Virus record (IMG/VR): IMGVR_UViG_3300003323_000990
Span: 1-64,000 of that record
From: a virus
Reading direction: 5' to 3' (one strand)
Length of the DNA: 64,000 bases
A program made the position numbers and the translations under genes. This document shows positions 1,305 to 62,785 of the stretch, one piece after another (positions within the stretch are counted from its first letter, which is position 1; the number at the start of each line of letters is the position of its first letter). A model generated the notes under the pieces. It was not told the DNA's origin, searched no databases, and saw only the letters and a program-made list of their open reading frames with translations.

Positions 1305-1826
1305 TCATGTTTCTGGGACTGGAAAAATGTTGGGCATTACCCTTTGTGTTAATCTAAATCCCAAAATTCTTTGTAAAGCATGTAAATGATAAACCCATTC
1401 AGTAATTTCAGAGGGATGTTGCCTTGGTAGCTTAACAAACTCGTTATGAGCTATTGTTAAGTAATCCAATACCTCTTTTTCTTCATAAGTAAGGATTACT
1501 TCCGTGTATTTTACATTGTCTATACCCGCTGTTGGGGGGGATTTTGGAATACCCGGAGTAAATACTTGATGATGATCAGTTTCTGAGGCTATTTTTATCC
1601 AACTATTAGCACTACCTAGTCTAATAATTATGGGTTCTTTAGAGGACTCAGCAAATTTAATGAAATTATCTGCATTAAGTTGGCTTTCAAAATACCTCTT
1701 ATATACATCTTTAGAAAGTTTATCCACTAATATTACAGGAATACCCTTTGAGGGCCAAGTTGGGGGATTAGCAAGGTCTATATAAACCCTTTCTACTAAT
1801 ACCTTAACACTTTTATTTTGTAACAT
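1305..1826 (-). CDS. hypothetical protein
   Basis: The track start at 1832 is TTG; the first ATG is at 1826 (MLQNKSVKV...). Overlaps the 3' end of the upstream gene by 14 nt. No motif recognised. Confidence 0.55.
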   Translation of the reverse strand: MLQNKSVKVLVERVYIDLANPPTWPSKGIPVILVDKLSKDVYKRYFESQLNADNFIKFAESSKEPIIIRLGSANSWIKIASETDHHQVFTPGIPKSPPTAGIDNVKYTEVILTYEEKEVLDYLTIAHNEFVKLPRQHPSEITEWVYHLHALQRILGFRLTQRVMPNIFPVPET

Positions 1827-2313
1827 ATTCAATAGGTTTTAAACTACTGGATAAATAAAGAGGGTGTTTCGGTAATCCTCTTTTTGAGATATCAAAACAA
1901 TGCAGTTTTAATCCTTTAAGCCTATCTAAAACTATTCTATCCTGTTCATATAAATCCCCCTTATCTCCCCACATGCAGATTATTTTAGCAGGACCATCTG
2001 GGTAAGCTACTAATTCAATAATATGCTTTAAATTTTCGGGACCCTGGCATTCTTTCCTAGAATGATTGAGTAATACAAAAGGATTACGGGACCTCAAAGC
2101 AAACAGATTTACTATAGTAAATCCACCATATCCCCATGTTTGGCAATATTTAGTTAATTTACGTATAGCTGCATCGTCTTTGTCTGCATCAGCTGTACTG
2201 GGGTTTAATCCAATAAATAATACCCTTTGTAAAGTATTATCCCAGACCCTTGTGAGAGTGTAGCGATATCTCTGGCAATCAGAGATAGTGGCTTTTTTGA
2301 GAATGTAATTCAT
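1813..2313 (-). CDS. DUF1643-like protein
   Basis: RYRYTLTRVWD, LFIGLNPSTADADKDDAAIRKL and IVNLFALRS match my memory of the DUF1643 family signature. Not verified by search. Confidence 0.6.
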   Translation of the reverse strand: MNYILKKATISDCQRYRYTLTRVWDNTLQRVLFIGLNPSTADADKDDAAIRKLTKYCQTWGYGGFTIVNLFALRSRNPFVLLNHSRKECQGPENLKHIIELVAYPDGPAKIICMWGDKGDLYEQDRIVLDRLKGLKLHCFDISKRGLPKHPLYLSSSLKPIEYVTK

Positions 2314-3014: not shown

Positions 3015-4055
3015 ATGAAAATAAAACATGAATACACTGTATTGGGAGTAAGTGCCGGGATAGGAGTAAGTTTATACCCTTTTAGGAAGCATCTTGTGGG
3101 AAATTATGAAGGTAGAAGTATATTTCACAGCAAGGGAGATAAACAGTGGAGATTAAATTTTAAAGATATTCCCTTATACAGAACTATTCCAACACTTTTT
3201 AATGGTTGTAGACAACAGGTGGATGTTATAATATCCTCCCCAGATTGTGGCAGTGGATCAATCCTAAGATTGTCAAGAGCTAAAAAATTGGGGGATCATA
3301 AACAAAATGTCTCATTAGCGGCCTTCTTTGAAGCAATACATGTGTATTGGCCCAAATTATTTTATTTTGAAAACCTGGAAGGGTTATTTAAGAGTTACCC
3401 AGAAAGAGAGTTTAACCAAATACTTCGAAATTATAGGTTAGTTAAACATGTAGCGTCTGTATCTCACTGGGGAAATTCTCAGGTTAGTCGTAAACGTCTT
3501 ATCATAATTGGTATTAGGAGGGATTTACCGCGTAAACTAAAAAGATGTTTTAAATTACCTGAAGTTCCAGAATTAAAACAGTGTTGGGAATTAATGAAGC
3601 ACCTGGAGCAAAGGGAAAAACCCGATATTTGCCATGTTCGGGAGAAGATGGATATCCCTATCTCTATTCATGCTGGGAAAAAGTTAACCCCAAAACAAAT
3701 TGCTTTAGAGTGGAATAGTAGTAGAAAAGACCAAAAAAGGTGGGAAACCCCAGAATACAAATTTTCAAGTGCCCCCGGAGTATACAGGAACCTTGCTGAG
3801 GATTATCCGGCAACTGCCCGTAAAGCAAATCGCCAATTTGATCATCATGGACTAATGTTAACTCCAAGGCAATTGGCACGAATACAGGGAGTTCCTGATA
3901 AATTTAAAATCCATTATGAACCAGACAAGTCCTTATATTGGATTAATAAGGGAAGAGCTGCAGTAACAAAAACTCCTCCTTACGAGATTTCTGTTTGGTT
4001 TAAACGCAAAATTGAAAAACACTACAAATTATGGAGTACGCAACCAGAAAATTAG
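3015..4055 (+). CDS. DNA (cytosine-5)-methyltransferase-like protein with variant catalytic motif
   Basis: Ordered Dcm-type motifs. Motif I is LGVSAGIGVS. Motif IV is ISSPDCGSGS, where PPCQ is normal. Motif VI is FENLEG. Motif VIII is SQVSRKRLIIIG. Motif IX is LTPRQLARIQGVPDKF. Confidence 0.7.
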   Translation: MKIKHEYTVLGVSAGIGVSLYPFRKHLVGNYEGRSIFHSKGDKQWRLNFKDIPLYRTIPTLFNGCRQQVDVIISSPDCGSGSILRLSRAKKLGDHKQNVSLAAFFEAIHVYWPKLFYFENLEGLFKSYPEREFNQILRNYRLVKHVASVSHWGNSQVSRKRLIIIGIRRDLPRKLKRCFKLPEVPELKQCWELMKHLEQREKPDICHVREKMDIPISIHAGKKLTPKQIALEWNSSRKDQKRWETPEYKFSSAPGVYRNLAEDYPATARKANRQFDHHGLMLTPRQLARIQGVPDKFKIHYEPDKSLYWINKGRAAVTKTPPYEISVWFKRKIEKHYKLWSTQPEN

Positions 4056-4666
4056 TAAGGCCTTTACAGGCCAATCAGTATTATCCTACTAAGGTAGTAA
4101 AGAAAAGGATTATATTGCACCATACTGCGGGGGGTTCTGCTCAGAGCTCAGTAGATTGGTGGAATACTAATCCCGATCATGTGGCCACCGCTTTCATCAT
4201 TGATAGAGATGGGCATGTCTATCAGAACTTTGATCCGCAGTATTGGTCGTATGCCCTGGGTTTAACGGGAGGAACCAATATTGAAAAGTCCTCAATCCAA
4301 ATAGAATTAGCCTCTTGGGGCCCAGTTCAGTGGAAAGAGGGGGATAATGAATTCACTGCAATAGCCTCACCTAAAACAACTATCCCCTTCAACAATGTGG
4401 TTGCTTGCCCTTTTAGAGGATACAAGTTTTACGAAAGGTACACAGATGAACAAGTTGAATCATGCGTAGGTTTAATTGCCATGCTGGTACATGATTTCAA
4501 AATAGAACTACAGGAACATTTGGAAGGATTCTGGAACTTGGCTCCCAAACCCTTATCAGTGGGAAATGGGTTATATGCCCATACCACTTTTAGAAAGGAT
4601 AAGGCAGATATATATCCTCAGCCTTCTTTGATACAGGCCATTTATAATAAGTTTGTAAAACTATAG
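4031..4666 (+). CDS. N-acetylmuramoyl-L-alanine amidase (PGRP/Amidase_2-type endolysin)
   Basis: RIILHHTAGGSA, ATAFIIDRDGHVYQ and SIQIELASWG are typical of type-2 amidases. A tandem hairpin terminator follows at 4663-4706. Confidence 0.8.
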   Translation: MEYATRKLVRPLQANQYYPTKVVKKRIILHHTAGGSAQSSVDWWNTNPDHVATAFIIDRDGHVYQNFDPQYWSYALGLTGGTNIEKSSIQIELASWGPVQWKEGDNEFTAIASPKTTIPFNNVVACPFRGYKFYERYTDEQVESCVGLIAMLVHDFKIELQEHLEGFWNLAPKPLSVGNGLYAHTTFRKDKADIYPQPSLIQAIYNKFVKL

Positions 4667-8629: not shown

Positions 8630-10093
8630 ATGTTCACGGACACTATTAAACTGGGATTTGGTCATAACTTAGTGTTAGGTAATACTCCCAAGTTAGTGGG
8701 TTCAACTGGTATAGCCAATATACTGGAAAAAGAATCAAGGGCTACTACTGAAGCATTTGGTTTATTTGAATCCTCCTCTCCAAATTATACAACTTATTAC
8801 CCCGATGTAAGTTCTGATGATCTTAACCCCACGGATGATGAGTTCATATTACCCTTATTCAGAGCATTATCAGAGGTAATAGTTCATAAGAATTGGAACC
8901 CTATTGATTTCGGTGTTGGGGGAGTATTAAAAAAATCCATGAATTTACTGGTGGCTCAAGCAGTAAATGTTGACCACGAAACCATGGTGGGCAATGCTGT
9001 TGGAGCAGTAAGTAACGTGGCATGGCAAACAGCTTATAAGGCATCTAATGGAGTACTGGTACCTGCGGGTATTAATGCTACTTTAAAAATAGATGGGAAA
9101 AGCAATCCCCGTTTAGCAAGGGGAATACAGATGGATCCTCCATCTATCCATTCTACTTCAGTAACTGTTAATTTCATGTGGGAAAAATCCCATAATGTAC
9201 CCGATGAGGATTTCTTTTCCAAATTGGGAAGTTATGATAAAGACGGGGCTATGTACCGGCGAATAGTTACTGGTATAAAAAGGTATAACGAAATATCCCT
9301 GGTGGGCCACGGAGCAGACCCCTTTGCTCAGAAAATAGATGCTAATGGGCAGATAGTTAATCCTACCTGGGCGGATATTTCCTATAACAGCGAAGATGCT
9401 AAAGTTAAACGACAATCTCAGAAGGTATTCTTCTTTGACTTTAAAGACATGGATTCTGTAAGTAACTCAGAGAATACAATACCTCTTGAAAATAATAATA
9501 ACGACGAAGAAAACAAAAACACTTCTAACATGAATCCATTCCTCTTATTCTTAGCTGAGAAATTCGGCATTTCAATTGAAGGTAAAACAGAAGAGCAACT
9601 CACTGCCGAATTAAAAGCTAAGGCAGAGACTTTGGGTGATGTTACTGCTCTCACTGCCACCAACGCTACTTTAACAGCAGAAAATGCTACTTTAACTGCC
9701 CGGGTAGCAGAGCTGGAGAAAACTCAGCCATCAGCAGATGTAACTGCTTTGACTGCTTTTAAAACAACTGTATTAGCTGATATGAGGGGCAATGTTACCA
9801 GATTATATAATCTGACTACAAAAACCCCAGTAAAAGCAATCACAGACATGATCTCCAACGGGGATTACCCTACCCTTGCTGCACTCACAGTTCAGTACCA
9901 GGAATTAGCAGATCAAGCTTATCCGGCCGAATGTAAAAATTGTGGCAGCAAAGAAATTAACCGGGCAAGTACAGAGCGTAACACAGAAGAGGAAGCTCCT
10001 GATACCTCTAATCTCTCTGCTTATGAGATTGCTCAAGCAATTGCTGACGAAAAACGTATTAAAAGAGCCGAGGGAATGCACTCTGCTGAGTAA
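8630..10093 (+). CDS. putative prohead protease / scaffolding fusion protein
   Basis: N-terminal part has VNVDHETMVGNAVGAV and IHSTSVTVNF, resembling HK97-type protease His/Ser blocks. C-terminal part is coiled-coil with repeated DVTALTA / NATLTAENATLTA heptads. Lies between portal and capsid genes. Confidence 0.5.
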   Translation: MFTDTIKLGFGHNLVLGNTPKLVGSTGIANILEKESRATTEAFGLFESSSPNYTTYYPDVSSDDLNPTDDEFILPLFRALSEVIVHKNWNPIDFGVGGVLKKSMNLLVAQAVNVDHETMVGNAVGAVSNVAWQTAYKASNGVLVPAGINATLKIDGKSNPRLARGIQMDPPSIHSTSVTVNFMWEKSHNVPDEDFFSKLGSYDKDGAMYRRIVTGIKRYNEISLVGHGADPFAQKIDANGQIVNPTWADISYNSEDAKVKRQSQKVFFFDFKDMDSVSNSENTIPLENNNNDEENKNTSNMNPFLLFLAEKFGISIEGKTEEQLTAELKAKAETLGDVTALTATNATLTAENATLTARVAELEKTQPSADVTALTAFKTTVLADMRGNVTRLYNLTTKTPVKAITDMISNGDYPTLAALTVQYQELADQAYPAECKNCGSKEINRASTERNTEEEAPDTSNLSAYEIAQAIADEKRIKRAEGMHSAE

Positions 10094-10145
10094 TGCAGGC
10101 TTCGGATTAATAAAATTTTAAACCTCTCTTAAATTATTTAATACC

Positions 10146-10592
10146 ATGACTGCATTCACCACCTTAGGTTTAAATACTAAGACTACTTTCCTCCATACGG
10201 AGAATCACAAAACAACAGTAGAATTTACTGCTTCCGCTGTTATCCAACCCGGCCAATTGGTTAAATTGGATGCTGCGGGTACCATTAGCCCCTGGGCAGC
10301 TACTGATCTCCAGCATACCTGCATTGGTTTTGCTTATAATGGAGCTAAAGCTGTTGGCGATCTTTGCACAGTATGGACCCGGGGCTATGCAATTATATTG
10401 GGTTTAAGTAATGCTGCTCAAGCTGCGGGCCCCACTACATTTGCTTCTTATGATACCACTAATGCCACTCCCGATGGTAATAAGGGGTATAATAAATATA
10501 AGGTAGCAACCGATGTTACCGACTGCATCGGATGGATGCTTGATCAAGCAACTGCAGCCAACCAACTGGTAAGAGTTCTGATTAAAGACTAA
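10146..10592 (+). CDS. putative head decoration / cement protein (DUF2190-like)
   Basis: 148 aa, directly upstream of the major capsid gene. GQLVKLDAAGTISPW resembles decoration-protein family members. Mainly a positional call. Confidence 0.4.
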   Translation: MTAFTTLGLNTKTTFLHTENHKTTVEFTASAVIQPGQLVKLDAAGTISPWAATDLQHTCIGFAYNGAKAVGDLCTVWTRGYAIILGLSNAAQAAGPTTFASYDTTNATPDGNKGYNKYKVATDVTDCIGWMLDQATAANQLVRVLIKD

Positions 10593-10653
10593 GTTACAAG
10601 CCCTGTACAATTAATACTAAACCTAATCTCAGAATTTTAAATACATTTAAAAT

Positions 10654-11760
10654 ATGTCCGAAGTTAAAACCGACAAACCCGCTGTAATTACGTCACAAGC
10701 GTTGAAGGAAGCGGTACAAGCTTGCGAGGCAACCCGTAAGCATAAAACAAACCCTACCGACATTACATTGCAGGAGTTTGTTAAGGCAAAATATCAGATG
10801 AGCATGGAGCAATTCTATGAGCAGCTGAAAGTAAATCCCACTTCGGACACTGTTGAGAACATCGTCAACATGCCCGATCAAAATTACCGCTGGCTTATCC
10901 CTGAGGTAATCAGAGATGCTATCCGGTTGGGTTTAAGAAAAGCCCCCATATATCCTAATATTATTGCATCGGAGCAGAATATCTCCCAAACAGAGATCAC
11001 TATGCCAGCCATCAATATGAGTGAAGCAATGCCTAAGTATGTGGGTATTGCTGAAACCATTACCGTTGGTGATGTATCTTTCCAGGAAAAGAAGGTAAGG
11101 ATCCGCAAAATGGGCCGGGGTATCAAAATCCCCTATGAAATCCGTCAATATGTTGCCCTGAACATTCTCTCCATATTCCTACAGGACTTCGGAGTAAAAA
11201 TGGGCATGGGCCTGGATATGCTTGCCCTGGATGCTGCAATCAATGGTGACCAAGCCGATGGCTCTGATTCAGCAGCAGTAATCGGGGTTGCAACTGCTGG
11301 TACACTTAACTATCGGGATCTTATTAAGCCCTGGGTACGGGGTAGCAGACTGGGCAAAACATTTGCCAACATGGTTGCTGGAGAAGACATGGCTATCGAT
11401 ATCCTGGATTTATTCCAGTACAATAACCGTCAGTTCGGAACAGTTATCCATCAGATTGACCTGAAAACTCCAATCCCGTCCAGTAGCAATCTGTGGGTAC
11501 ACGGGGGTATTCCAAACAGCCAAGTACTCATCGTTGATCCGGCCAGTGCACTCATTAAACTGAATGCTCAGCCTTTGCTGGTTGAAACAGAGAAGATAGT
11601 ATCCAACCAGACTGAAGCTACCTATGCTTCTATCACTACTGGCTTTGCAACTTTATTCCGTGATTCCCGGGTGGTATTGGACAAATCTATCACTTATGCT
11701 GCGAACCCATTCCCAGCATGGATGGATCCTACCTATCAGGAAACTCTGGAAATCCAATAA
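10654..11760 (+). CDS. major capsid protein (HK97-fold type)
   Basis: 368 aa in the head module, after protease/scaffold and decoration genes. Followed by a strong intrinsic terminator at 11793-11823, typical of highly expressed capsid genes. Confidence 0.75.
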   Translation: MSEVKTDKPAVITSQALKEAVQACEATRKHKTNPTDITLQEFVKAKYQMSMEQFYEQLKVNPTSDTVENIVNMPDQNYRWLIPEVIRDAIRLGLRKAPIYPNIIASEQNISQTEITMPAINMSEAMPKYVGIAETITVGDVSFQEKKVRIRKMGRGIKIPYEIRQYVALNILSIFLQDFGVKMGMGLDMLALDAAINGDQADGSDSAAVIGVATAGTLNYRDLIKPWVRGSRLGKTFANMVAGEDMAIDILDLFQYNNRQFGTVIHQIDLKTPIPSSSNLWVHGGIPNSQVLIVDPASALIKLNAQPLLVETEKIVSNQTEATYASITTGFATLFRDSRVVLDKSITYAANPFPAWMDPTYQETLEIQ

Positions 11761-36434: not shown

Positions 36435-36917
36435 ATGGCAAAAAGAAAACCTAGAAATAAAATGGCAAAGAAAGTAAACGTATTATTTCCCATTTCGTTA
36501 GAGGAATTTGGAACTGAGAATGATCCCTGCTTTGGTAAATTAAATGATCCTAGAGCTTCAGAATGCCAAAGTTGCGGAGATTGTGAAGTATGTGCTATTG
36601 TTCAATCCCAGAACACTCATTTAAAGAGAGCAAAGGTAGAAGCAAAGAAAAAGTTCAAAGACCTTGAAGAGGTTAATATATTAAAAAACCAAGATCGTAA
36701 GGAGGTAAGAAAGAAAATAAAGAACACTGTAAGAAAATGGTTGAAAGGGGGAAGACCTATGGAGATTGATAATCTTATAAGCAGCGTACACTCAGCTATA
36801 CCAGAATCTAAAAAATTATACCCATCTAAGAAATTGAAAAGCCTGCTAATTAAACTCCCTGAGAAGAGTGAACATATCACCTATAATGAATCCAAAAACA
36901 TTCTACTATGGAAATGA
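36435..36917 (+). CDS. hypothetical basic protein with Cys cluster
   Basis: The cluster is C-x12-C-x2-C-x2-C-x2-C (CFGKLNDPRASECQSCGDCEVC), followed by a Lys-rich helical region. Confidence 0.55.
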   Translation: MAKRKPRNKMAKKVNVLFPISLEEFGTENDPCFGKLNDPRASECQSCGDCEVCAIVQSQNTHLKRAKVEAKKKFKDLEEVNILKNQDRKEVRKKIKNTVRKWLKGGRPMEIDNLISSVHSAIPESKKLYPSKKLKSLLIKLPEKSEHITYNESKNILLWK

Positions 36918-37702
36918 TTCCCACAGCAACAATCCAAGAAGGATTCGGAAGTATCTTCAGCAGGAAGATAGCTCTGATGGACCTACTTATTTCTAAAGAT
37001 AAGTTAGTGTCATACCCTATAAGCCTATCCAATAAAAAAGGTCAACAAACCATCAGGGAGATGATGGGATACTTTATAGAAGAGCTTGCTGAGGCCCATG
37101 AGCAAGTACAATATATGTACGAATCCATGTCGGTAAATATGGAGAGCAAGGCTATAGAGTACCATGGTAACTTTCACGAAGAAATTGCGGATTGCTGGGA
37201 ATTTATTATTGAGATCCTTATATACTCCGGTATAGATTATCCATCACTTGTAAGTTATTACCAAACCATGGTAGATGTAGAAAATACACATAACCTATGG
37301 GATGGCATATTCTTTATGAATCATGTTTGGAAAGTTGCTGAAATAAGAAATGAGAGCAGTTGGTTAGAAAACCCCGATAGAAGAACCCAGTTCTATATAA
37401 AAAATCCAGACCCAATGTGCAATGGCATGAGAGGAGTAAATATATCCACTATATTGCATATGGGTAATTATTGCTGGGAGATAACCTCAAAATTAATGAG
37501 AGCAAGGAACCAGCTTAAAGCTAAACCTTGGAGGGAGTCAATCGTAAAGGTGGATATAAATAACTACCATCAATTGCTTATGGAGGCATTCCAAGATTTT
37601 ATGGCATTAAATGTATGGCTTGGACTGACTCCAGCTTCTGTATTGGAGCAATATAAAAGGAAAAATGATATTAACATAAACAGACAAAAAACAGGATACT
37701 AA
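36908..37702 (+). CDS. all-alpha NTP pyrophosphohydrolase (MazG / dimeric dUTPase / T4 gp56-like)
   Basis: Paired acidic metal-binding helices FIEELAEAHE and FHEEIADCWEFIIE are typical of the MazG / dimeric dUTPase superfamily. Confidence 0.55.
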   Translation: MEMIPTATIQEGFGSIFSRKIALMDLLISKDKLVSYPISLSNKKGQQTIREMMGYFIEELAEAHEQVQYMYESMSVNMESKAIEYHGNFHEEIADCWEFIIEILIYSGIDYPSLVSYYQTMVDVENTHNLWDGIFFMNHVWKVAEIRNESSWLENPDRRTQFYIKNPDPMCNGMRGVNISTILHMGNYCWEITSKLMRARNQLKAKPWRESIVKVDINNYHQLLMEAFQDFMALNVWLGLTPASVLEQYKRKNDININRQKTGY

Positions 37703-38556
37703 TGGTAATAAAGCAACATTACTTCCCCACTCTGCAAGCTGCATGGGAAGGATTAAATGAATACCTAGCAAATAATGAGGCAGAGATTAGGAAGTCAGGG
37801 GGAGGAACATATGGAACAGAGATGGTTGCTTATAATACCTTCGTATCAATTGGAAAGACTTGGGTAGACCCTAAGTTTAATTTTGGAAGGGTATTGGGCT
37901 ATAGGAATAAAAAGTGGTCAAAGCTTATAAATAACTATGTTAACTTTGACTACCTTGACCTTATAAGAAGCGAGGTAAGGGATAGAGAGAAAAAGAAGGC
38001 AAAGAGTTATAATCATACCTACCATTTTGATAACTCCCATGGTTCTGGGAAGGATTGTCTTATATCATTAACTTTCATGAGGAAAGTAACTGATGATAAT
38101 CCCACGGTTATTTATAATACCAGGGCCTCTGAAGCAACAAAAAGGATGATATTTGATTTTCTTTTAATCCAAAGAATGGTCGAATATGTTTATGGGGAAG
38201 GAGTAACTGTGGAGATGGTTGCGTTCATTCCCTTTATGTTTATAAACGTAGAAGCCTTTCTTATATACATGGCCTGGAAGGGGAAAGATGCTGTAGTAGT
38301 TCCCCCTAAGGAAGGTTATTCAAAATTCCAACAACGGCTAGTATCAAAATATGATGAGTTCTCAACCCGTGATTTAAACTCAATTAAATATAAGGTCCAC
38401 AAGAGAGCAGCAGCCCAGGTGCAAAAAGACAAAAACGGTAATCCTATATCTGGAGCTCCAGATTTATTTGCAAAGGATTTAAAGTTTGATAACAAACGTA
38501 TTAAATTAGTGGCAGTAAGTAAAATAGAAAAATTAAACGAAGGCATTGCTATTTAA
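37702..38556 (+). CDS. divergent thymidylate-synthase-fold paralogue (function unknown)
   Basis: By-eye collinearity with ThyA: YFPTLQAAWEGL.., GGGTYGTEMVAYNTFVSI (compare RTGTGTLSIFGHQMRF), GKDCLISLTF (compare PCHAFFQF), YNTRASEATKRMIFDFLLIQRM (compare YQRSCDVFLGLPFNIASY). Several catalytic positions are not conserved. Confidence 0.4.
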   Translation: MVIKQHYFPTLQAAWEGLNEYLANNEAEIRKSGGGTYGTEMVAYNTFVSIGKTWVDPKFNFGRVLGYRNKKWSKLINNYVNFDYLDLIRSEVRDREKKKAKSYNHTYHFDNSHGSGKDCLISLTFMRKVTDDNPTVIYNTRASEATKRMIFDFLLIQRMVEYVYGEGVTVEMVAFIPFMFINVEAFLIYMAWKGKDAVVVPPKEGYSKFQQRLVSKYDEFSTRDLNSIKYKVHKRAAAQVQKDKNGNPISGAPDLFAKDLKFDNKRIKLVAVSKIEKLNEGIAI

Positions 38557-38577
38557 TAATACTATAATATTCCTACT

Positions 38578-39402
38578 ATGTACCTTGATAAAGCTATACA
38601 GAAAACAGCCCATACCTTAATTAACACAGGCTATGATATTACTACAGAGAAATGGCAGGGAGTAGATAATCCCCCTGCTATGTGGGAATCCTTAAACGTA
38701 GTATTAAATTCAGTAATGCCACAAACACCTGGGGAATTAACCAGGCTAGTAAAACCAAATTTACCCTGGGCAGAAAATCATTTTAGAGAAAGAATATCGG
38801 GTAAACCCCTTAATCCGGGAAACGAATACAAGAATTGGCCTTATTATAAGAGAGATGCCGAGATGCGTACTGAGGGAGAAAAATTTACTCACTCATACAT
38901 GGAGCGGTTTTGGCCAAAATATGCGGGGGGTAAATTTGCAGAAAATGATCCCGATGCAACAAAATATTACAAAGAAAAAAATTATGACCCCAATAAAGGC
39001 GTAAGGTATACTCTGGGTGATTTCAATGATCTGTTAATATTACTTAAAAAAGAACCACATACCCGCCAAGCATACCTCCCAATTTGGTTTCCAGAGGACA
39101 CAGGAGTAGTGCACGGAGGTAGAGTTCCCTGCTCTTTGGGATACTATTTCATTATGAGAAGGGGATATTTACATTTAAACTACTACATTAGGAGTTGCGA
39201 TTTTTTAAGACATTTTAAAGACGATATATACATGGCAGTAAGGTTAGCTCAGGAGTTATTAAATCAACTAAGGTATTTAGATAATAGCTGGGATGATGTT
39301 GAGTTAGGAACATTCAATATGTATATAGGTTCACTCCATATATTTCTACAGGAACTAAATATTGTAAAGAAAAGATATGAACCAGACATTCAACACAGAT
39401 AG
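38578..39402 (+). CDS. ThyA-family pyrimidine nucleotide C5-modifying enzyme, dCMP hydroxymethylase-like
   Basis: LLKKEPHTRQAYLPIWFPED, RVPCSLGYYF (catalytic Cys), YIRSCDFLRHFKDDIY and IGSLHIF are collinear with the ThyA core. Asp sits at the position of the ThyA uracil-selecting Asn. Confidence 0.65.
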   Translation: MYLDKAIQKTAHTLINTGYDITTEKWQGVDNPPAMWESLNVVLNSVMPQTPGELTRLVKPNLPWAENHFRERISGKPLNPGNEYKNWPYYKRDAEMRTEGEKFTHSYMERFWPKYAGGKFAENDPDATKYYKEKNYDPNKGVRYTLGDFNDLLILLKKEPHTRQAYLPIWFPEDTGVVHGGRVPCSLGYYFIMRRGYLHLNYYIRSCDFLRHFKDDIYMAVRLAQELLNQLRYLDNSWDDVELGTFNMYIGSLHIFLQELNIVKKRYEPDIQHR

Positions 39403-39838
39403 AATAGAAAGGGCAATACTTAATATGAGTATTGCCTTTTTGGTTTCTAAGAGGGGCACTTGCCAAAGAGCAAAAGTAGGATGCGTTATAACCCAAGATA
39501 AACGGATAGTTGCTACAGGGTATAATGGGCAAATATTAAATGCTGGAGAGTGCAGGGATATATGCGATATAACTATAGGTTGTAAGCATGCTGTACATGC
39601 CGAGGCCAATGCTATTGCATTCTCTGCTAGGTTGGGTATTAGTTTATTGGGAAGTACACTATATTGCACCCATCAACCATGCTATGAGTGCGCTAAAATA
39701 ATTATACAGGCTGGTATTAACAAAGTATATTATTGCTTACCTTATAGAATAACCGATGGTATACATTTATTATCTGAAGCAGGGATAGAGCTAAATTCAA
39801 TTAACTATGAGTCAATTAAAAATCATATCATCCCATAA
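39377..39838 (+). CDS. dCMP deaminase
   Basis: Zinc-binding motifs CKHAVHAEANAI (HAE) and THQPCYECAKII (PCxxC). Confidence 0.85.
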   Translation: MNQTFNTDRIERAILNMSIAFLVSKRGTCQRAKVGCVITQDKRIVATGYNGQILNAGECRDICDITIGCKHAVHAEANAIAFSARLGISLLGSTLYCTHQPCYECAKIIIQAGINKVYYCLPYRITDGIHLLSEAGIELNSINYESIKNHIIP

Positions 39839-42020
39839 GCAGGTTAAGCAATTAATTAAATACTGTAAGCAGACAGGGTATGCCTCTGTCGATTTTGAAA
39901 CATCAGATAAGCGGTATTGGATAGATGAAGAGTATCCAACAATATTGGGGGTATCTTTTCAAATTGGGGGAGCTTGGATAATACCACTAAACCATTTTGA
40001 AAGTCCTTTCCGGGATAAATCTAAGGGGGGGGATGGTAGTTGGAAGAAATTACTAAAATTATTCGGAAAAGAGGTAGTAGAAAACCCAGATATAGTTAAG
40101 GTAGCTCACAACCTAAAGTTTGAATACAAATGGTTTTTACGTTATGGTATCCAAATGAGGGGAAGGTTATTTGATACCATGCTTGCAAAATACCTTCTTG
40201 ATGAAGAAAGACCCCATGATTTAAAAAGTTTAGTACAGGTATTATATCCCCAATATGCTCATTATGAAGATGAGTTAGATAAAAATTTACCTTGGGACAA
40301 AAAGCCCATGAAAACATTAGCTCCTTATTGTGGGATAGATACTGATCTGGAGTTACGAATAATGTGCTACCTGGAGAGAAGGCTAATGAAATTGGGTTTT
40401 TATAATCTATTTCGTAACCTTCTTATGATGTCCTCCCGGGTATTAGCAGAATCTGAGTATTATGGAATGGTGGTAGATAGGCCATATCTGGAGGGATTAG
40501 TTGGAAAGTATAATACCCTTATAAAGGAATGTGAAGTAAAGTTAAGGCAAAATAAGAAGGTATTACTATACGAAAAAACCTGGAGGCAGGATTTTAAACA
40601 TAAATTAATTGATAAAGAAAAGTGGGAGATAAAAAATATCCAAAATGGTTTATCAGGAGATGGTAAATCAAAACTAGCAGAGAGGTCAAATCCTGATAGT
40701 CTGATAAAAAACAGGCAAATAAAAATACAAAATATACTTGAAGGGAAATTTAATACTAAGGATGCTGAGAAATATAAGGAGGGATTAAACTTTGGTTCTC
40801 CACAGCAATTAGTACCATTCTTTTACACCTCTGAGTTTGGATTGAAATTTAAAATAATAGATAAAACAGATTCGGGTAATCCCAGTACAGCAGAAGAAAC
40901 TCTGCTCAAGTATTTAAAGAAAGATAAGACAGGAGTAATTAATACATTATTAGAATTAAGGGGACTAGAAAAGCTGCAATCTACGTATATACGCGGAATG
41001 TATGAAATACTCACAGACGATAATAGAGTACACGGTACTTATAATATTCATGGTACTGTAACTGGGAGGTTAAGTAGTTCCGACCCCAATATGCAGAATA
41101 TCCCGAGGGTAACAACTAATCCCGATGTAAAGAGGATGTTTATTGCCCCAAAAGGAATGCTTATATTGGAGGTAGATTATTCCCAAGCAGAACTTCGTAT
41201 AGTTGCAGAGGTAGCACAGGATGAGGCTATGCTCGATATCTTCAAGAGGAATTATAATATCCACGTTGCAACCGCTTGTAAGAAGAATAAAGCATTAGAT
41301 AGGTATGAAGAAATAAAGAAGATACTAAAGGACGAGGACCATCCAGATTGGTTATTCTGGACTAAAGAGAAAAAGAAGGCAAAGACGATTAACTTTGGTA
41401 TATTATATGAGCAGGGGGATGAAATGCTTGCTGAGGGCATGGGAGTTACAGTGGAAGAGGCAAAAGAGTTCAAAGAGGAATGGTTTAAGATGTTCCCCGG
41501 AGTTGCAAAATGGATGAAGGAGCAGCATAAAGCAGTAGTAAGGGATGAACATGTTAAATCATTATGGGGAAGAAAAAGGAGATTATATAATATAACCCAC
41601 CCGGAGAAATGGGCTAGAGCTGAGGCTTTAAGACAATCAGTAAACTGTCCAATACAATCAGCTGCCTCAGATTTTACACTATTCTCCACTGTAGTTCTCC
41701 GGGAGATGATGCAGAAAGGAGAAATACCCTATATGCAACAATGCTACACGGTGCATGACTCCATAGGTTATTACATAAAACCAGAACTTCTCGATAAAGT
41801 AGTACCCATTATAACTAAAGTATGTGGTAACCCACAAACGATGGAATACTTTGGATTTGAACTAAAAGATGTATGGATGAAAGTATCACCAGAGGTTGGT
41901 GCATCTTGGGGAGATTTAGAGGAATGGGAAAAGGGGAAAGACTATTCACATTTATTAAATAAAAACTATGTATCACGCAAGCAGAAAGGATTACATAAAG
42001 CTCCTACCAGTGCTAACTGA
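39807..42020 (+). CDS. polA: family A DNA polymerase with 3'-5' exonuclease domain
   Basis: Exo I is ASVDFETS, Exo II is AHNLKFEYKW, Exo III is YCGIDTD. Pol motif A is LEVDYSQAELRIVA, motif B is KKAKTINFGILYEQG, motif C is YTVHDSIGY. Confidence 0.9.
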   Translation: MSQLKIISSHKQVKQLIKYCKQTGYASVDFETSDKRYWIDEEYPTILGVSFQIGGAWIIPLNHFESPFRDKSKGGDGSWKKLLKLFGKEVVENPDIVKVAHNLKFEYKWFLRYGIQMRGRLFDTMLAKYLLDEERPHDLKSLVQVLYPQYAHYEDELDKNLPWDKKPMKTLAPYCGIDTDLELRIMCYLERRLMKLGFYNLFRNLLMMSSRVLAESEYYGMVVDRPYLEGLVGKYNTLIKECEVKLRQNKKVLLYEKTWRQDFKHKLIDKEKWEIKNIQNGLSGDGKSKLAERSNPDSLIKNRQIKIQNILEGKFNTKDAEKYKEGLNFGSPQQLVPFFYTSEFGLKFKIIDKTDSGNPSTAEETLLKYLKKDKTGVINTLLELRGLEKLQSTYIRGMYEILTDDNRVHGTYNIHGTVTGRLSSSDPNMQNIPRVTTNPDVKRMFIAPKGMLILEVDYSQAELRIVAEVAQDEAMLDIFKRNYNIHVATACKKNKALDRYEEIKKILKDEDHPDWLFWTKEKKKAKTINFGILYEQGDEMLAEGMGVTVEEAKEFKEEWFKMFPGVAKWMKEQHKAVVRDEHVKSLWGRKRRLYNITHPEKWARAEALRQSVNCPIQSAASDFTLFSTVVLREMMQKGEIPYMQQCYTVHDSIGYYIKPELLDKVVPIITKVCGNPQTMEYFGFELKDVWMKVSPEVGASWGDLEEWEKGKDYSHLLNKNYVSRKQKGLHKAPTSAN

Positions 42021-42312
42021 GGCATTTGATTATACAATGGATTTTTGGAGATCGGGTATGATGCACCTTCCCCCTTTGTTAATAAGAGAGCTGGACGGAA
42101 TGAGTCCGGGAATAATAATGCCTAATAGAATGGGTAGTGATATTGAAATATACTGTCGTAATATTTATAACTTTTGCTTTACAGTTTGGGGATATAACAA
42201 AGAGGGATTTGAACGATGTGAGCAAGCTGCTATAGCAAGGGTAAAAGCAAAAGTAGATTATTTATGTGGGGCTGCTAATAGTAAAATTAATTACGAACAT
42301 AAACTTAAATAA
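41968..42312 (+). CDS. hypothetical protein
   Basis: An ATG at 41968 overlaps the polymerase 3' end by 53 nt. An in-frame ATG at 42037 (MDFWRSG...) is an equally plausible start. Confidence 0.45.
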   Translation: MYHASRKDYIKLLPVLTEAFDYTMDFWRSGMMHLPPLLIRELDGMSPGIIMPNRMGSDIEIYCRNIYNFCFTVWGYNKEGFERCEQAAIARVKAKVDYLCGAANSKINYEHKLK

Positions 42313-42978
42313 ATGAAAGTAGTAATGCTTGGTTCATCAGGAGCCGGAAAGACAACATTAGCAAAAGCAATTGCTGAGAAATTAGGACTCCAATACGTGG
42401 AGAACTCTGCTGGGCTTATCCTAACTAAGGAGGCAAAGAATACTTTGAAGCAAAGGTATGATTACTTTGGAGATGCTGGACAGGTGGGAGTAATTAATAA
42501 GTCTGCAGCTGAGCCCCAATTCGGAGTAGATTTTCAGGAGTGGATATTAACAAGTAGGTCTGAGATATTGGAGATGAACCAGAATATTATTTTGGATAGA
42601 TCCCCATTAGACCCCGTAGTATTCTGGTTGAATCAAGTAGTACATAATACTACTCAGGGAGAAACAACTGAATTTATTACCAGGTGCTTCAGAGCGATGG
42701 TAGAAAGTGGGGTTACTCACGTAATAAGAGTGCCCCTGCAGAACCCCAATGAGGAGATTGAAAACAATGGTAGTAGATGCCACAATTGGTATTTCCAGAA
42801 AAAAATAGATCTACTCTTTGATCTGGTATTAGATTGGTTTAATGGTTGGAAGAATAGTGATCAAGTATTCATGGTAAATAATGAAAAACCCATGATAAGA
42901 ACTCACTACGTTAATACCTGGGATTGGGAAAACAGGTTAAAACAAGCATTATACTTTTTGAATAAGGATGCTATTTAA
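42313..42978 (+). CDS. P-loop deoxynucleoside/deoxynucleotide kinase-like protein
   Basis: Walker A MLGSSGAGKTTLAKAIA and the dNK-type ILDRSPLDPVVF block. Confidence 0.6.
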   Translation: MKVVMLGSSGAGKTTLAKAIAEKLGLQYVENSAGLILTKEAKNTLKQRYDYFGDAGQVGVINKSAAEPQFGVDFQEWILTSRSEILEMNQNIILDRSPLDPVVFWLNQVVHNTTQGETTEFITRCFRAMVESGVTHVIRVPLQNPNEEIENNGSRCHNWYFQKKIDLLFDLVLDWFNGWKNSDQVFMVNNEKPMIRTHYVNTWDWENRLKQALYFLNKDAI

Positions 42979-58747: not shown

Positions 58748-61700
58748 ATGAAAAGATTACTTCTGTTTTTACCCCTTATACTGGGGTTTATTATTCCCTC
58801 CACAGCTCAAGTTTTACAGGGTAATACCCTAAGGATAAGAGATAGTCTATGGCTGAGAGATAAGTGGATAAGAGATATAAGCATTGACCAGCAATTATCA
58901 GGGAACTCAGACCAAATACTTGCTACTCAGAAGGCAGTAAAGGCCTATGTAGATTCTAAAATTGGCCTAACTGCTATAGCTGATACTGTAAATACTATTA
59001 ACCGGTTAATGGCCTATACTGGGAATGCTGGAGTAATATTTCTGATGGATAATGAAAGGGCGGGGTCAGCTCCATTATTTAAATACATACCCGCAAATAT
59101 CCCTGTAGATAGTGGTATAGTATTTCCTGCTACGGGTAAAGGATCTGGAAGATGGGTAAGACAATGCAGTATTAATACTATTGAGGCTGCCTGGTTTGGG
59201 GTATTACCAAATGGGCAGGATGTATCAAGGCAAATGAATAAGATACTGGAAACTTACTCTCCAGTTACCAACACAACTGATACTATTGGTGTGTCTATAA
59301 AATTGCCCCGAGGAATAATCCGGTTGAAGAGTATTATAATTGGTAGGGGTGTAAAAATATGGGCAGATCAGGAGGCTGTAAACAATGTGGATGCCTATGT
59401 GCAAAGTAAAGTAATGCCTGCACCTGGTGCTGATTATGTATTTGACTTCAGTGAAATTGCTTTTAATTCTGGCCTTGTAAACATATACCTTGATGGGGAT
59501 TTTACAAATAATCCAAACTTAATTGCGGGAATACGATTCAGAGGAGCTTTTAACTACTTAAGGAATAATAATATTATTAGATGCCCCAACTATGCTGTTT
59601 GGTCTAGCTGTGGTTCATTTAGGGTAACTAATAATAATTTCCAGGGACAAGCTGCTCCTAGTATACCATTTTCATCTTACCAGGATTATCATGGAGCATT
59701 GCATATTACTGCAGCTGGCGACTCTTACCTAAGAGATAATGAGATTGGAGCTTATGCGCCTTACCTTACTGGACAGGTAAGTAATCCTATTAACATCATT
59801 CGGGACTATCCACTGAGAAGGATAGTTTCGTTGTTTGCAGGCTATTTAGGTAATTCATATGTATCGGGTAATCTATTTGAGAATGGGGATCAGGGGGCAG
59901 TTATTAATGGGGGTATATACGGTAACTATAGGGATAATAGGTATGAGATGAATGGAGGTGGTGGGCTACACCTACGGAACGGGATGTATTACACAACATT
60001 TACCGATGAGAAATTTGCTAATAACTCCCTTGCGGTTAACGGGGGATTTTCAGATTTAGTACTTGACACTGGAGCAGTAGCATTTTGCACATTTGCTCAT
60101 CCTGTATTTTTAAAGATGCCCCACCCAGCAATACCTACTTCTAATTTTAAGGTAAAGTATAATATCGTAAATTATACGGGACCCAAAGGTAATACCTTAA
60201 TTACTCCAAGGTTCGCAGACAGAAGTGCTGAGGTATCAAAATACGATAGCCTTGGTAATTTTGACACAACCGTGCAAGCAGCTAAATTCAATTGGGTTGA
60301 GGGTCATGAGGACCCAACTAATCCAATATTTGATGGAGCTATATTTGGGTATACGGGTAAAGGAGACGGAACAGTAAAGGGTAGCGTACGAATAGCTCCT
60401 GGGTCTACAACAGCATTGGGGGGAAGAACCGGCACTATATCATTCTGGGAACCCTTAGCAGTAGCTCCTACTTCCCAGATAGGATTTAATAATGATGGTA
60501 ATTTAGATTTCTCTTTGTTTGGAACGAATAAGCAGTATATTTTTGGCAATGGAAGCATGATCTTGGCTAAACCTGGGCCTAACTCAATATCCCTGCAAAG
60601 TAATGATGCTGGGGGAAATACTACCTCTATAAATTTTAACAGTAGTCCCACATTTACCAAGACGGCGGGTATAAGTCTAACTACAGATGGATCACTTAAT
60701 ACTATTGCTACAGATAATATGACCTGGGCAACTGCTAATCAGGGTATATTTACTTTCCAAAACAGTAGTATGACTATTGCTAAAGCTGGAGGAGCTACTG
60801 TAAATGTAATTGGGGATGGGACGGGAAATAACTCATTCAGATTATCTTCCGATGGCATGGCTGCTCATTCAATGGAGTTTGGGCAAAATAATGCTACAGG
60901 GATGGCCTATATAAGAAGTGGAGATAGTATAGATATAGGTATTTCTCATAATTTTAAATTGGCTCCTAATGGTTTAACTTTTATCCCCCAAGCTCCAAAT
61001 CCTGCAACCCCTGGTAGGTATATGATATTAGCTAGAGATACTACTAATAATGGGGAAATGACCATTGTTAACCCATTGAATATACCGTCAAATACAAAAG
61101 CAGACAATGGGCTATCTTTAAGGCATGATACAGTAGTACTGGGAGGAAAACCCCTATTAGATAGTACAGTATTAAAAACTAATGGTTTTTGGTTTTCTGT
61201 AAGAAAAGATGTTAGTACAGATACTGCTATGTTTAATCTGGGTTTAACTAGGTTTGCTGGGCTAGTTTTCTCTGGGAATGATCTGTCCTTTAAGGATGTT
61301 TCTAGTAGTACCGAAACAGCAGTACAACAATATAACATAGGAGCTGGTGCCGGGACAACAATACAAGCAGGAGCTGCTGCAGCAGCAAACCCAGTAACAA
61401 AGCTAGTAGTAGATCCCCTGAGATTGGCTATGGGTACCGCCGGAGCTGGGGGATCATACATAAATGTTTCGCCCTCAGATAATGCCTCCGAATTTAAAAA
61501 TGCTCTGGTTTTGCAGGGGGGTACAAGAGCATCTACTGGGACTTATGCTCAATTAGCGCATTGGCAGCCAGTATTATCCTCAAATCCCGATAGTTATATA
61601 CGATTATCAGATAGTACAGTAAATATAGCTACTGACGGCCAGAGTCCGGGTGCAATGATAAATTTAACCTCTCCCCATATATATGCTGTTACCGACAGCA

Positions 61701-62785
61701 TGAATATTGCAGCCAATTACCTTGATATAGGCTATCCAAGTGGTTTTGCAGGAAGAGCTAAATTTCATCCTCTATTATCTGAATTTGGTTTATACAGCGG
61801 ATATACAACGCCCTTCTCTTATTTGCAATTTATAACAGATGGCTCTACTTATGTACATAATACTATGTATGATGCCTTTTCAAAGGGTATAGTATATGCC
61901 AGTGATTATTCTGCAAATGGGCTTACTGATGATAATTGGCTAACTTCTCTAAAGGCGGTAAAAAAAATAGTACATGATAGTTTAGTAACTGCTGGGGGAG
62001 TAAATATATTTAACTCCGATGGTACATTAACAAGCAATAGGACTTTAGATGGTGCAACTAATTCTTATGGATTATCTCTAACCAATTTAAATTATTTCGG
62101 GGTATCAGGCACGGGGTCAATATCTATGTCTAATTCCGCAACAGGTGCTGGATTTGGCATGGATGGTTTTGGGGGCGTAACTATAAATGGGGGTACTGCT
62201 GGGGGAGTTGGTCCGGGGGTTAATATAACGACTGGGGATAACAGTAATATTACTTTAACTAATAATTATACTGCTGGGCAAAGGATAAAAATAAATGGGA
62301 TGCCCAATAACGTAGCGGAGGATAGTGTACTAACAACGGATAACACGGGCATAGTTAAGATGAAAAGTTTAACCAGCCTAAACCTGGATAAAGTTTTAGA
62401 GAATGGTAATTTAACTACACGGGTTGCTAATGTTGGGGGATTAGGAGTATCGGGTCCTGCTTATTTCAGTGGGGGAATATATTTATCTCAAAGAGCTCAG
62501 AACACTACAGGTAATTTAAACGTCGGGGATGAGGTTGTAACTGTAAATAACTCAGGTGCTGTAACTTTAACTCTACCTACTGCTGCAAGCTGTGATAAGA
62601 TGGTAGTATGGGTTAAAAAGCAAAGTGCAGCATCAAATGATGTTACTGTTAAGGGAAGTGGCTCTGAGCTTATTGATGGAGCAAACACTAAGGTATTAAC
62701 AATCCAGTATAGCTCTATATGTTTAAGGTCTAATGGCACTAAATGGGAGATAATAGAAGGACACGTAGGTAATGCAACTTATTGA
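58748..62785 (+). CDS. giant fibre / beta-helix (pectate-lyase-like) protein with Sec-type signal peptide
   Basis: N-terminus is MKRLLLFLPLILGFIIPSTA/QV. Fibre-collar motif LATQKAVKAYVDSK, repeated near aa 1065 as LTSLKAVKKIVHDSL. Asn/Gly-rich repeats (NNNIIRC.., GNLFENGDQG..) are typical of right-handed beta-helices. Confidence 0.7.
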   Translation: MKRLLLFLPLILGFIIPSTAQVLQGNTLRIRDSLWLRDKWIRDISIDQQLSGNSDQILATQKAVKAYVDSKIGLTAIADTVNTINRLMAYTGNAGVIFLMDNERAGSAPLFKYIPANIPVDSGIVFPATGKGSGRWVRQCSINTIEAAWFGVLPNGQDVSRQMNKILETYSPVTNTTDTIGVSIKLPRGIIRLKSIIIGRGVKIWADQEAVNNVDAYVQSKVMPAPGADYVFDFSEIAFNSGLVNIYLDGDFTNNPNLIAGIRFRGAFNYLRNNNIIRCPNYAVWSSCGSFRVTNNNFQGQAAPSIPFSSYQDYHGALHITAAGDSYLRDNEIGAYAPYLTGQVSNPINIIRDYPLRRIVSLFAGYLGNSYVSGNLFENGDQGAVINGGIYGNYRDNRYEMNGGGGLHLRNGMYYTTFTDEKFANNSLAVNGGFSDLVLDTGAVAFCTFAHPVFLKMPHPAIPTSNFKVKYNIVNYTGPKGNTLITPRFADRSAEVSKYDSLGNFDTTVQAAKFNWVEGHEDPTNPIFDGAIFGYTGKGDGTVKGSVRIAPGSTTALGGRTGTISFWEPLAVAPTSQIGFNNDGNLDFSLFGTNKQYIFGNGSMILAKPGPNSISLQSNDAGGNTTSINFNSSPTFTKTAGISLTTDGSLNTIATDNMTWATANQGIFTFQNSSMTIAKAGGATVNVIGDGTGNNSFRLSSDGMAAHSMEFGQNNATGMAYIRSGDSIDIGISHNFKLAPNGLTFIPQAPNPATPGRYMILARDTTNNGEMTIVNPLNIPSNTKADNGLSLRHDTVVLGGKPLLDSTVLKTNGFWFSVRKDVSTDTAMFNLGLTRFAGLVFSGNDLSFKDVSSSTETAVQQYNIGAGAGTTIQAGAAAAANPVTKLVVDPLRLAMGTAGAGGSYINVSPSDNASEFKNALVLQGGTRASTGTYAQLAHWQPVLSSNPDSYIRLSDSTVNIATDGQSPGAMINLTSPHIYAVTDSMNIAANYLDIGYPSGFAGRAKFHPLLSEFGLYSGYTTPFSYLQFITDGSTYVHNTMYDAFSKGIVYASDYSANGLTDDNWLTSLKAVKKIVHDSLVTAGGVNIFNSDGTLTSNRTLDGATNSYGLSLTNLNYFGVSGTGSISMSNSATGAGFGMDGFGGVTINGGTAGGVGPGVNITTGDNSNITLTNNYTAGQRIKINGMPNNVAEDSVLTTDNTGIVKMKSLTSLNLDKVLENGNLTTRVANVGGLGVSGPAYFSGGIYLSQRAQNTTGNLNVGDEVVTVNNSGAVTLTLPTAASCDKMVVWVKKQSAASNDVTVKGSGSELIDGANTKVLTIQYSSICLRSNGTKWEIIEGHVGNATY

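Follow-up and report, generated by a model that had tools for sequence, protein, structure and literature searches.

A polymerase-linked cassette with two thymidylate synthase-like proteins in an uncultured myovirus, probably built for altering cytosine in phage DNA

Introduction

In metaviromes, the thymidylate synthase (TS) domain was found by MetaGPA to be the family most strongly tied to contigs with modified cytosine, with position 177 (Asn versus Asp) as the top residue discriminating modified from unmodified contigs and with co-occurrence of TS, a PRA-PH pyrophosphohydrolase and a deoxycytidine monophosphate (dCMP) deaminase (PMC8670742). Deaminases within 3 kb of TS amount to 70% on modified contigs and 6% on unmodified ones, PRA-PH and the family A DNA polymerase (PolA) are among the top deaminase neighbours on modified contigs, five of the seven deaminase-linked TS homologues tested made 5-methyl-dCMP (5mdCMP), and dTTP arises from 5mdCTP through the deaminase mSCD-B5, a conversion also proposed for phage Xp12 (10.1101/2024.12.05.627091). 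Here, a cassette of related composition is described from a 64,000-nt stretch (the window, to which all ranges refer) of the IMG/VR virus record IMGVR_UViG_3300003323_000990, whose source is a 78,077-bp contig of a root-metagenome assembly; scans of the window and of both contig ends covered 75.8 kb. The cassette encodes two TS-fold proteins, designated TS-like A and TS-like B, together with a pyrophosphatase, a deaminase, PolA and a kinase. Judged by folds, residues, gene order and conservation, from which all enzyme activities are inferred, it most likely gives the virion DNA a C5-substituted cytosine made before replication and coupled to the phage polymerase (probability about 0.6).

Two other kinds of cytosine-directed system and one group of related synthases serve for comparison. 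Xp12 and PaMx74, both phages with 5-methylcytosine (5mC), possess one TS homologue with Asp at the position of Asn177 of E. coli ThyA (N177 position), a full ThyA-like C-terminal tail and Asn at the L143 position; a pyrophosphohydrolase or hydrolase is encoded upstream, a gene of the dCMP-deaminase family lies directly downstream, dihydrofolate reductase (DHFR) is encoded beside TS, and no separate canonical ThyA is present. In T4, the proteins gp56, gp42, cd and gp1 provide for destruction of dCTP, modification of dCMP at C5, phosphorylation and incorporation. The signature of gp42-type enzymes is an acidic residue at the L143 position (Asp145 in T4) for water activation (PMC13326640, PMC6400193), while the C-terminal tail of ThyA closes over the folate and seals the site for hydride transfer (PMC6400193). 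The 5-hydroxy-dCMP synthases RB69 gp48, DLP3 gp80 and HY126 AfhB have the TS fold, use dCMP as a substrate and carry a D169N exchange.

Results

TS-like B carries an aspartate at the base-selecting position

TS-like B matches the Pfam family Thymidylat_synt (PF00303) with 25.9 bits, narrowly above the cut-off of 24.3, and phrog_160 at 1.6e-24, and every NCBIfam TS equivalog scores far under its cut-off. Its AlphaFold (AF2) model, with a predicted local distance difference test (pLDDT) score of 84, retrieves with Foldseek the structures of MilA, ThyA, the T4 dCMP hydroxymethylase (dCH) and AfhB at E 1e-10 to 1e-12, and its best PDB sequence match is the N229D mutant of L. casei TS, crystallised with dCMP. 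On the strength of this model, TS-like B can be placed in the TS/dCMP hydroxymethylase superfamily, with the TS fold.

TS-like B was aligned by MAFFT with E. coli ThyA, T4 gp42 and the TS homologues of Xp12 and PaMx74, and by hhalign with gp42. Both procedures equate C185 with C146 of ThyA, R205/S206 with R166/S167, D208 with D169, D216 with N177 (Asp179 in T4) and H254 of the GSLH motif with H207; the Asp at the Asn177 position and the GSLH motif had already been read by eye in the original prediction, and this reading is the same in both alignments. The Tyr94 equivalent is Y107, and C185, R205/S206, D208, Y107 and H254 are invariant or nearly so. As for the base-selecting residue itself, D216 is invariant in 37 TS-like B homologues, and among further relatives 73 of 81 and 72 of 77 also have Asp here. 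TS-like B ends 20 residues past His254, at a point from which E. coli ThyA runs on for 57 residues. From these residues, TS-like B is predicted to be a C5 one-carbon transferase acting on dCMP.

TS-like A is a second, very divergent protein with the same fold

For TS-like A, no match could be observed in Pfam (E<=1), in NCBIfam (E<=0.1) or among PDB sequences, and its only match is phrog_34294, a PHROG family without assigned function. Its AF2 model (pLDDT 92.5) nonetheless matches MilA, T4 dCH, AfhB and ThyA in Foldseek at E 1e-5 to 1e-6, with probability 1.0 and template modelling (TM) scores of 0.42-0.55, and in BFVD it finds phage proteins annotated as TS and the cassette protein of Pseudomonas phage PMBT14. 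A first profile comparison, with narrower alignments, was not significant (0.05% probability), whereas hhalign with a broad TS-like A alignment against a TS alignment gave 81.6% probability at E 1e-5. The latter comparison equates C119 with C146 of ThyA, R141 with R166, E144 with D169 and D152 with N177. Y79, C119, R141 and D152 are invariant in 25 diverse TS-like A members, gp47 of mycobacteriophage Muddy included, and the last three are invariant also in the far-diverged paralogues of Muddy, PMBT14, Serbin and P744. The model and the residue map thus point to a TS fold with a set of Cys nucleophile, Arg, acid and Asp.

The presence of two proteins with the ThyA fold, as put forward in the original prediction, is borne out by Foldseek for both models, by Pfam for TS-like B and by hhalign for TS-like A, and the alignments (MAFFT and hhalign for TS-like B, hhalign for TS-like A) give both of them Asp rather than Asn at the base-selecting position. 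Since both carry this Asp (D152 and D216), neither protein reads as a canonical ThyA, and for the same reason the analogy with the T4 pair of td and gp42 fails.

The TS-like A and TS-like B pair is conserved beside PolA in many phages

Database relatives of the TS-like B family number more than 2,800. In cultured phages, tblastn reveals TS-like B at 38-47% identity across many hosts, namely in phages of Serratia (Serbin, Tlacuache), Pseudomonas (PMBT14, Almagne), Yersinia (P744) and Brevundimonas, and also of Microbacterium, Streptomyces, Gordonia and Mycobacterium (Muddy-like). PMBT14, P744, Serbin and Muddy, which infect Proteobacteria and Actinobacteria and are either siphoviruses or small myoviruses, encode in this order a kinase, an all-alpha pyrophosphatase, TS-like A, TS-like B, a deaminase and PolA (gp49-gp44 in Muddy). 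The order from the pyrophosphatase through PolA is therefore shared with the present phage, and TS-like B is 39-44% identical to its counterparts in these four phages, in all of which Asp occupies the N177 position. The difference lies in the kinase, which is encoded at the 5' end of their cassettes, while the present phage has an unrelated P-loop kinase after PolA. In GenBank, TS-like A of these phages (~270 aa) is labelled 'hypothetical protein' and TS-like B 'thymidylate synthase', and the whole cassette is annotated as routine thymidylate metabolism. In Serbin, it sits where 9g-like relatives have a deazaguanine DNA-modification cluster.

Counts in IMG/VR were made on the 80 best TS-like A loci and the 80 best TS-like B loci. 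TS-like B lies immediately downstream in 77/80 of the TS-like A loci, two of the other three ending at a contig edge; the pyrophosphatase is found in 78/80, PolA after the cassette in 76/80 and the deaminase in only 20/80, so that the pyrophosphatase, TS-like A, TS-like B and PolA form the core of the cassette and the deaminase is accessory. Among the 80 best TS-like B loci, 28-32 carry the cassette on one strand and 48 are 'solo' TS-like B genes. Hence TS-like B can work without TS-like A, but TS-like A almost never occurs without TS-like B. Homologues of the present kinase lie downstream of PolA in 10/80 and 17/80 of the related loci, while in other cassettes an unrelated kinase precedes the pyrophosphatase. 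Cellular genomes practically lack the pair, the one match being on an 82-kb contig of a metagenome-assembled genome, probably a mis-binned phage.

The 'solo' TS-like B genes reside mostly on contigs of more than 100 kb, next to Metallophos, NT5C or dUTPase genes, and in jumbo phages ribonucleotide reductase genes are also among the neighbours, which are uninformative on the product. Many of these contigs measure 120-430 kb, and in 14 of 30 sampled the gene directly follows one for a calcineurin-like metallophosphoesterase; one such locus (L002, with the TS-like B gene at 10001-10840 of a 327,907-bp contig) has two glycosyltransferase genes 6-8 kb away. Separately, L133, L138, L144 and about 50 similar IMG/VR loci on ~45-88-kb contigs are syntenic with the window upstream of the cassette, and this clade has the pyrophosphatase, TS-like A, TS-like B and PolA and no deaminase gene.

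The pyrophosphatase, deaminase and kinase

The gene ahead of TS-like A encodes a protein that matches Pfam dUTPase_2 with 29.4 bits (cut-off 22.9; 1.1e-6) in its C-terminal residues 220-264 only, and the PHROG NTP pyrophosphohydrolase families phrog_12184 (8.9e-22) and phrog_173 (1e-9, residues 43-264). Its BLASTP similarity to T4 gp56 (E 2e-4) is confined to 41 C-terminal residues, and it is homologous to the 'dUTPase' at the equivalent cassette position of Serbin, P744 and Muddy. These matches assign it by sequence to the all-alpha NTP pyrophosphohydrolase family, and it may act as a dCTPase/dUTPase that converts dCTP to dCMP.

The gene following TS-like B clearly belongs, as judged from profiles and motifs, to the dCMP-deaminase family. 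Its product matches Pfam dCMP_cyt_deam_1 (PF00383) at 3.2e-22 with 78.8 bits (cut-off 25) and phrog_174 at 3e-47, contains both zinc motifs (HAE and PCxxC), and finds among the PDB entries listed (4p9c, 2hvv, 1vq2) the dCMP deaminase 4p9c at 1e-26 and T4 cd at 1.6e-22. Its identity to the deaminases in the cassettes of Muddy, PMBT14, Serbin and P744 is 38-44%, and PolA is 27-31% identical to the polymerases at the equivalent position in the same four phages. Thus, the all-alpha pyrophosphatase and the dCMP deaminase proposed earlier both gave profile matches above the cut-offs, and all five open reading frames (ORFs) of the original prediction were recovered at their positions with every motif quoted for them.

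The gene at the 3' end of the cassette had been called a dNK-type P-loop kinase. The P-loop kinase part stands (AAA_28, 1.9e-9); the dNK match does not reach its cut-off (24.2 bits against 27, 3.3e-5). The only specific support for a kinase family is phrog_2107, 'thymidylate kinase', at 1.8e-14, and PDB matches are limited to the P-loop. No similarity was detected to T4 gp1 (BLASTP E 0.33) or to the cassette kinases of Muddy, PMBT14, Serbin and P744. Taking its position into account, this protein may be a kinase for (modified) deoxynucleoside monophosphates.

Layout of the locus and type of phage

The positions of the cassette genes and of further features are collected in Table 1. The seven genes of the cassette, 36908-42978, form one operon-like unit that includes the phage polymerase gene: all lie on the + strand, and the largest gap between neighbours is <=21 nt. 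The stop codon of the pyrophosphatase gene overlaps the ATG of the TS-like A gene with one base in common, the deaminase gene overlaps both of its neighbours (TS-like B by 26 nt and PolA by 32 nt), PolA overlaps the 114-aa ORF by 53 nt, and the ATG of the kinase gene directly abuts the stop of this ORF, for which nothing was found in Pfam, PHROG or NCBIfam. Directly upstream of the pyrophosphatase gene, and overlapping it, a Cys-rich protein of 160 aa (CFGK...CQSCGDCEVC) is encoded that has no family match; an ORF of similar size occupies the equivalent place in related loci (L099, L144).

Table 1. Cassette genes and other features of the window mentioned in the text
Feature	Position	Strand	Basis or remark
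all-alpha NTP pyrophosphohydrolase (dimeric-dUTPase/MazG-like)	36908..37702	+	Pfam, PHROG
TS-like A, very divergent TS-fold protein (by model), without Pfam family	37702..38556	+	AF2 model, Foldseek, hhalign
TS-like B, divergent member of the TS family, base-selecting residue Asp216	38578..39402	+	Pfam, PHROG, model, alignments
dCMP-deaminase-family zinc deaminase (HAE, PCxxC)	39377..39838	+	Pfam, PHROG, PDB
family A DNA polymerase (PolA)	39807..42020	+	identity to cassette PolA of cultured phages
114-aa ORF, no family	41968..42312	+	listed for contiguity within the operon only
P-loop nucleotide kinase	42313..42978	+	AAA_28, dNK below cut-off, phrog_2107
Cys-rich 160-aa protein	36435..36917	+	no family match
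C5 cytosine-specific DNA methyltransferase	3015..4055	+	Pfam PF00145, 2.7e-17
lysis amidase	4031..4666
DUF1643 protein	1813..2313	-	Pfam, 7e-35
1345-aa ORF	58748..62785	+	no Pfam or PHROG match

The contig encodes a tail sheath, baseplate proteins including a Baseplate_J match, a terminase, a portal and a major head protein, and the phage is therefore a myovirus. It had been described earlier as a Bacteroidota-type myovirus. Shine-Dalgarno-like motifs precede 4/68 of the + strand genes against a background of 17%, and A/T-rich leaders precede the cassette genes; the scarcity of such motifs is consistent with a Bacteroidota-like host and is no proof of one. The genome is 36% G+C (64% A+T), and its only similarity to known phages at the DNA level is a 274-bp match in PolA. 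The DUF1643 protein is encoded by one of a few minus-strand genes grouped at the window's left end, and the 1345-aa ORF is the largest gene of the window.

Discussion

Comparison with the closest described systems

By domain set and adjacency, the closest described system is the MetaGPA type of modified-cytosine neighbourhood, in which TS with Asp177, a dCMP deaminase, a PRA-PH pyrophosphohydrolase and PolA are likewise adjacent. The MetaGPA studies were, however, built on Pfam hits, while Pfam contains no family for TS-like A, and TS-like B lies barely above the cut-off.

With Xp12 and PaMx74 the present phage has in common a TS homologue with Asp at the N177 position, the deaminase gene directly downstream, a pyrophosphohydrolase gene upstream and the lack of a separate canonical ThyA. 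It differs in having two TS-fold genes, a truncated C-terminus of TS-like B, Arg182 at the L143 position and direct coupling to PolA, and in the lack of DHFR, for which neither tblastn with the Xp12 and PaMx74 DHFR queries nor a small hidden Markov model search of the 75.8 kb gave a match, a weak negative given the diversity of DHFRs. These resemblances raise the possibility that TS-like B is a dCMP methyltransferase of the Xp12 kind and that the virion contains 5-methylcytosine, which would be a sub-case of C5-substituted cytosine with another product; the deaminase would then turn part of the 5-methyl-dC pool into dT nucleotides, and a true thymidylate synthase would be unneeded. The shared adjacency, the absence of a canonical ThyA from the contig, and the activities reported for deaminase-linked TS homologues and for mSCD-B5 (10.1101/2024.12.05.627091) agree with such a pathway, but we consider it rather unlikely, as TS-like B, although it has the Asp, has neither the hydride-transfer tail that Xp12 and PaMx74 keep nor a linked DHFR, and is only ~22-29% identical to their TS over part of its length. 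Because it is missing from 60/80 of the TS-like A loci, the deaminase cannot be a general source of dT.

Concerning T4, the same logic is plausible, and Asp at the N177 position, the GSLH motif and a short C-terminus are common to gp42 and TS-like B. The sequence kinship is nevertheless remote or none: hhalign with gp42 gives 80%, gp42 is not among the PDB phmmer matches of TS-like B at E<=10, the similarity to gp56 is restricted to the short C-terminal segment, and gp1 is unrelated. Furthermore, gp42 has Asp145 at the place of Arg182, the present phage lacks td, a glucosyltransferase and a clustering as in T4, and it has a second TS-fold paralogue. The T4-style toolkit of the original prediction is thus retained as a nucleotide-level pyrimidine set with a cytosine-selecting Asp, and its one-to-one correspondence to gp56, gp42, cd and gp1 has to be given up. 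Its statement that no glycosyltransferase was recognised proved correct, as glycosyltransferase, TET and carbamoyltransferase genes are all missing among the ~50 ORFs scanned and from the Pfam lists for both contig ends.

The 5-hydroxy-dCMP synthases are among the top structural matches, and a 5-hydroxycytosine pathway by such a flavin-dependent enzyme was considered. It is ruled out because the D169 equivalent is retained in TS-like B (D208), so that the D169N signature is absent; TS-like A has E144 there.

Proposed route to a modified cytosine nucleotide

The cassette would operate as a variation on known TS-homologue pathways, set apart by a second, obligate TS-fold enzyme, by a TS clade that bears Arg and lacks the tail, and by a deaminase that is optional. 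In the proposed sequence of steps, the all-alpha pyrophosphatase would hydrolyse dCTP (and dUTP) to the monophosphate, by which canonical dCTP is removed and dCMP is supplied. TS-like B would hold dCMP via Asp216, Cys185 would attack C6, and a one-carbon unit would be transferred from methylene-tetrahydrofolate to C5. For the resulting intermediate, hydration to 5-hydroxymethyl-dCMP would be more probable than reduction to 5-methyl-dCMP, since TS-like B has no C-terminal lid of the ThyA type and the phage lacks DHFR; retention of D208 and the short C-terminus resembling that of T4 dCH likewise appear to favour hydroxymethylation over methylation. TS-like A, paired with TS-like B, might perform a second step on the cytosine nucleotide or act as a partner subunit of TS-like B. 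The P-loop kinase together with the host NDP kinase would provide the triphosphate, which the adjacent PolA would incorporate. The deaminase would be an optional accessory that converts dC-type to dU/dT-type nucleotides, balancing the pools of the A+T-rich genome. The product may be 5-hydroxymethyl-dC, 5-methyl-dC or another C5-substituted dC.

A bolder extension, which we regard as doubtful, is that the pair makes before replication a derivative of cytosine so far undescribed in phage DNA. TS-like A would serve either as a second Cys-dependent enzyme, which re-activates 5-hydroxymethyl-dCMP and puts another group in place of the hydroxyl, or as a partner in a heterodimer with TS-like B, whose chemistry it would alter. 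If this were true, a very large group of phages would be concerned, the therapeutic mycobacteriophage Muddy included.

Points against a modified cytosine and other uses of the deaminase

Several observations count against a C5-substituted cytosine in the virion. A C5 cytosine-specific DNA methyltransferase is encoded next to the lysis amidase, with the motifs PxC, ENx, RxR and TPRxxARxQGxPD intact, and it is probably active, as far as its motifs indicate; complete replacement of cytosine at C5 is less likely because this enzyme would then have no substrate. Some palindromes are depleted in the 75.8 kb as compared with Markov expectations (ATGCAT 1 vs 17.5, GAATTC 2 vs 15.6, TCTAGA 1 vs 7.7, GATC with a ratio of 0.73 and CTAG of 0.49), while GGCC, CCGG and GCGC are not avoided. 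These statistics, from a single genome and multiple tests, suggest that the DNA is still exposed to some restriction enzymes. Within TS-like B, the position of the gp42 signature acid is occupied by Arg182, located three residues before the catalytic Cys in an ungapped stretch and present as Arg in 80/81 homologues, and the column of Glu58 (T4 Glu60), whose catalytic equivalent is said to be conserved in all TS, CH and dCH enzymes, holds Asn61 in both alignments. This region has an insertion, and a conserved Glu/Asp66, five positions after Asn61, and an invariant Glu71 lie downstream, so that the nearby acidic residue makes the latter point ambiguous; the family-invariant Arg182 and the ambiguous Glu58 column would both argue against a simple gp42-like reading of TS-like B. 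The kinase assignment is based on the P-loop match and gene position, and in the literature searched no published nucleoside data were found for the TS-like B clade or for cultured phages bearing the cassette. The modified virion cytosine of the original prediction hence keeps the backing of the Asp and of the MetaGPA-like neighbourhood, with total replacement weakened by the DNA methyltransferase.

Ordinary cytosines, as implied by the DNA methyltransferase and by the avoided C-containing palindromes, would be expected if the cassette only balanced nucleotide pools, turning dC into dT nucleotides for a genome of 36% G+C, either by dCTP to dCMP, 5-methyl-dCMP and dTMP, or by dCMP to dUMP and then host ThyA, with modified dC not or only marginally incorporated. 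GenBank names the same genes thymidylate kinase, dUTPase, thymidylate synthase and dCMP deaminase, in line with such a function. It is nevertheless unlikely, as it requires the deaminase that most cassettes lack, leaves no role for a second TS-fold enzyme bearing Cys and Asp, and accounts neither for the conserved Asp at the N177 position, by which modified contigs are distinguished (PMC8670742), nor for the virtual absence of the cassette from cellular genomes.

The deaminase could also act on the thymine side, if dCMP were hydroxymethylated and then deaminated to 5-hydroxymethyl-dUMP, giving DNA with 5-hydroxymethyluracil or a derivative instead of or beside modified cytosine. Seven metagenomic deaminases of the same family gave 5hmdU in DNA from 5hmdC nucleotides (10.1101/2024.12.05.627091), and overlap of the deaminase gene with those of TS-like B and PolA would suit such a coupling. 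We judge this very improbable, given that the gene is missing from most cassettes, that the scan of ORFs turned up no gene for 5-HMUDK, aGPT-Pplase or any other step of thymidine hypermodification, and that dUMP hydroxymethylases of the ViI type are marginal matches only (~25% identity, E ~3e-4). Thymidine hypermodification of the ViI/M6 type itself is rejected on the grounds of these marginal matches and the absence of both enzymes from the ORFs scanned.

Significance

Modified cytosines decide whether phages survive restriction enzymes, CRISPR and modification-dependent nucleases, and they also hamper sequencing and cloning. The two TS-like enzymes are probably built for cytosine, in a cassette joined to the polymerase gene, such that altered-cytosine DNA could help the phage to escape bacterial defences. 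Hundreds of uncultured phages encode the pair next to their polymerase, as do cultured phages of Mycobacterium, Pseudomonas, Serratia and Yersinia, and the latter make the question directly testable. If rewriting of cytosine is true, annotations as ordinary thymidylate metabolism would be wrong, TS-like A would represent a new enzyme family in the thymidylate synthase superfamily, and for several phages that are in therapeutic use or have been proposed for it, the chemistry of the DNA would be not yet known.

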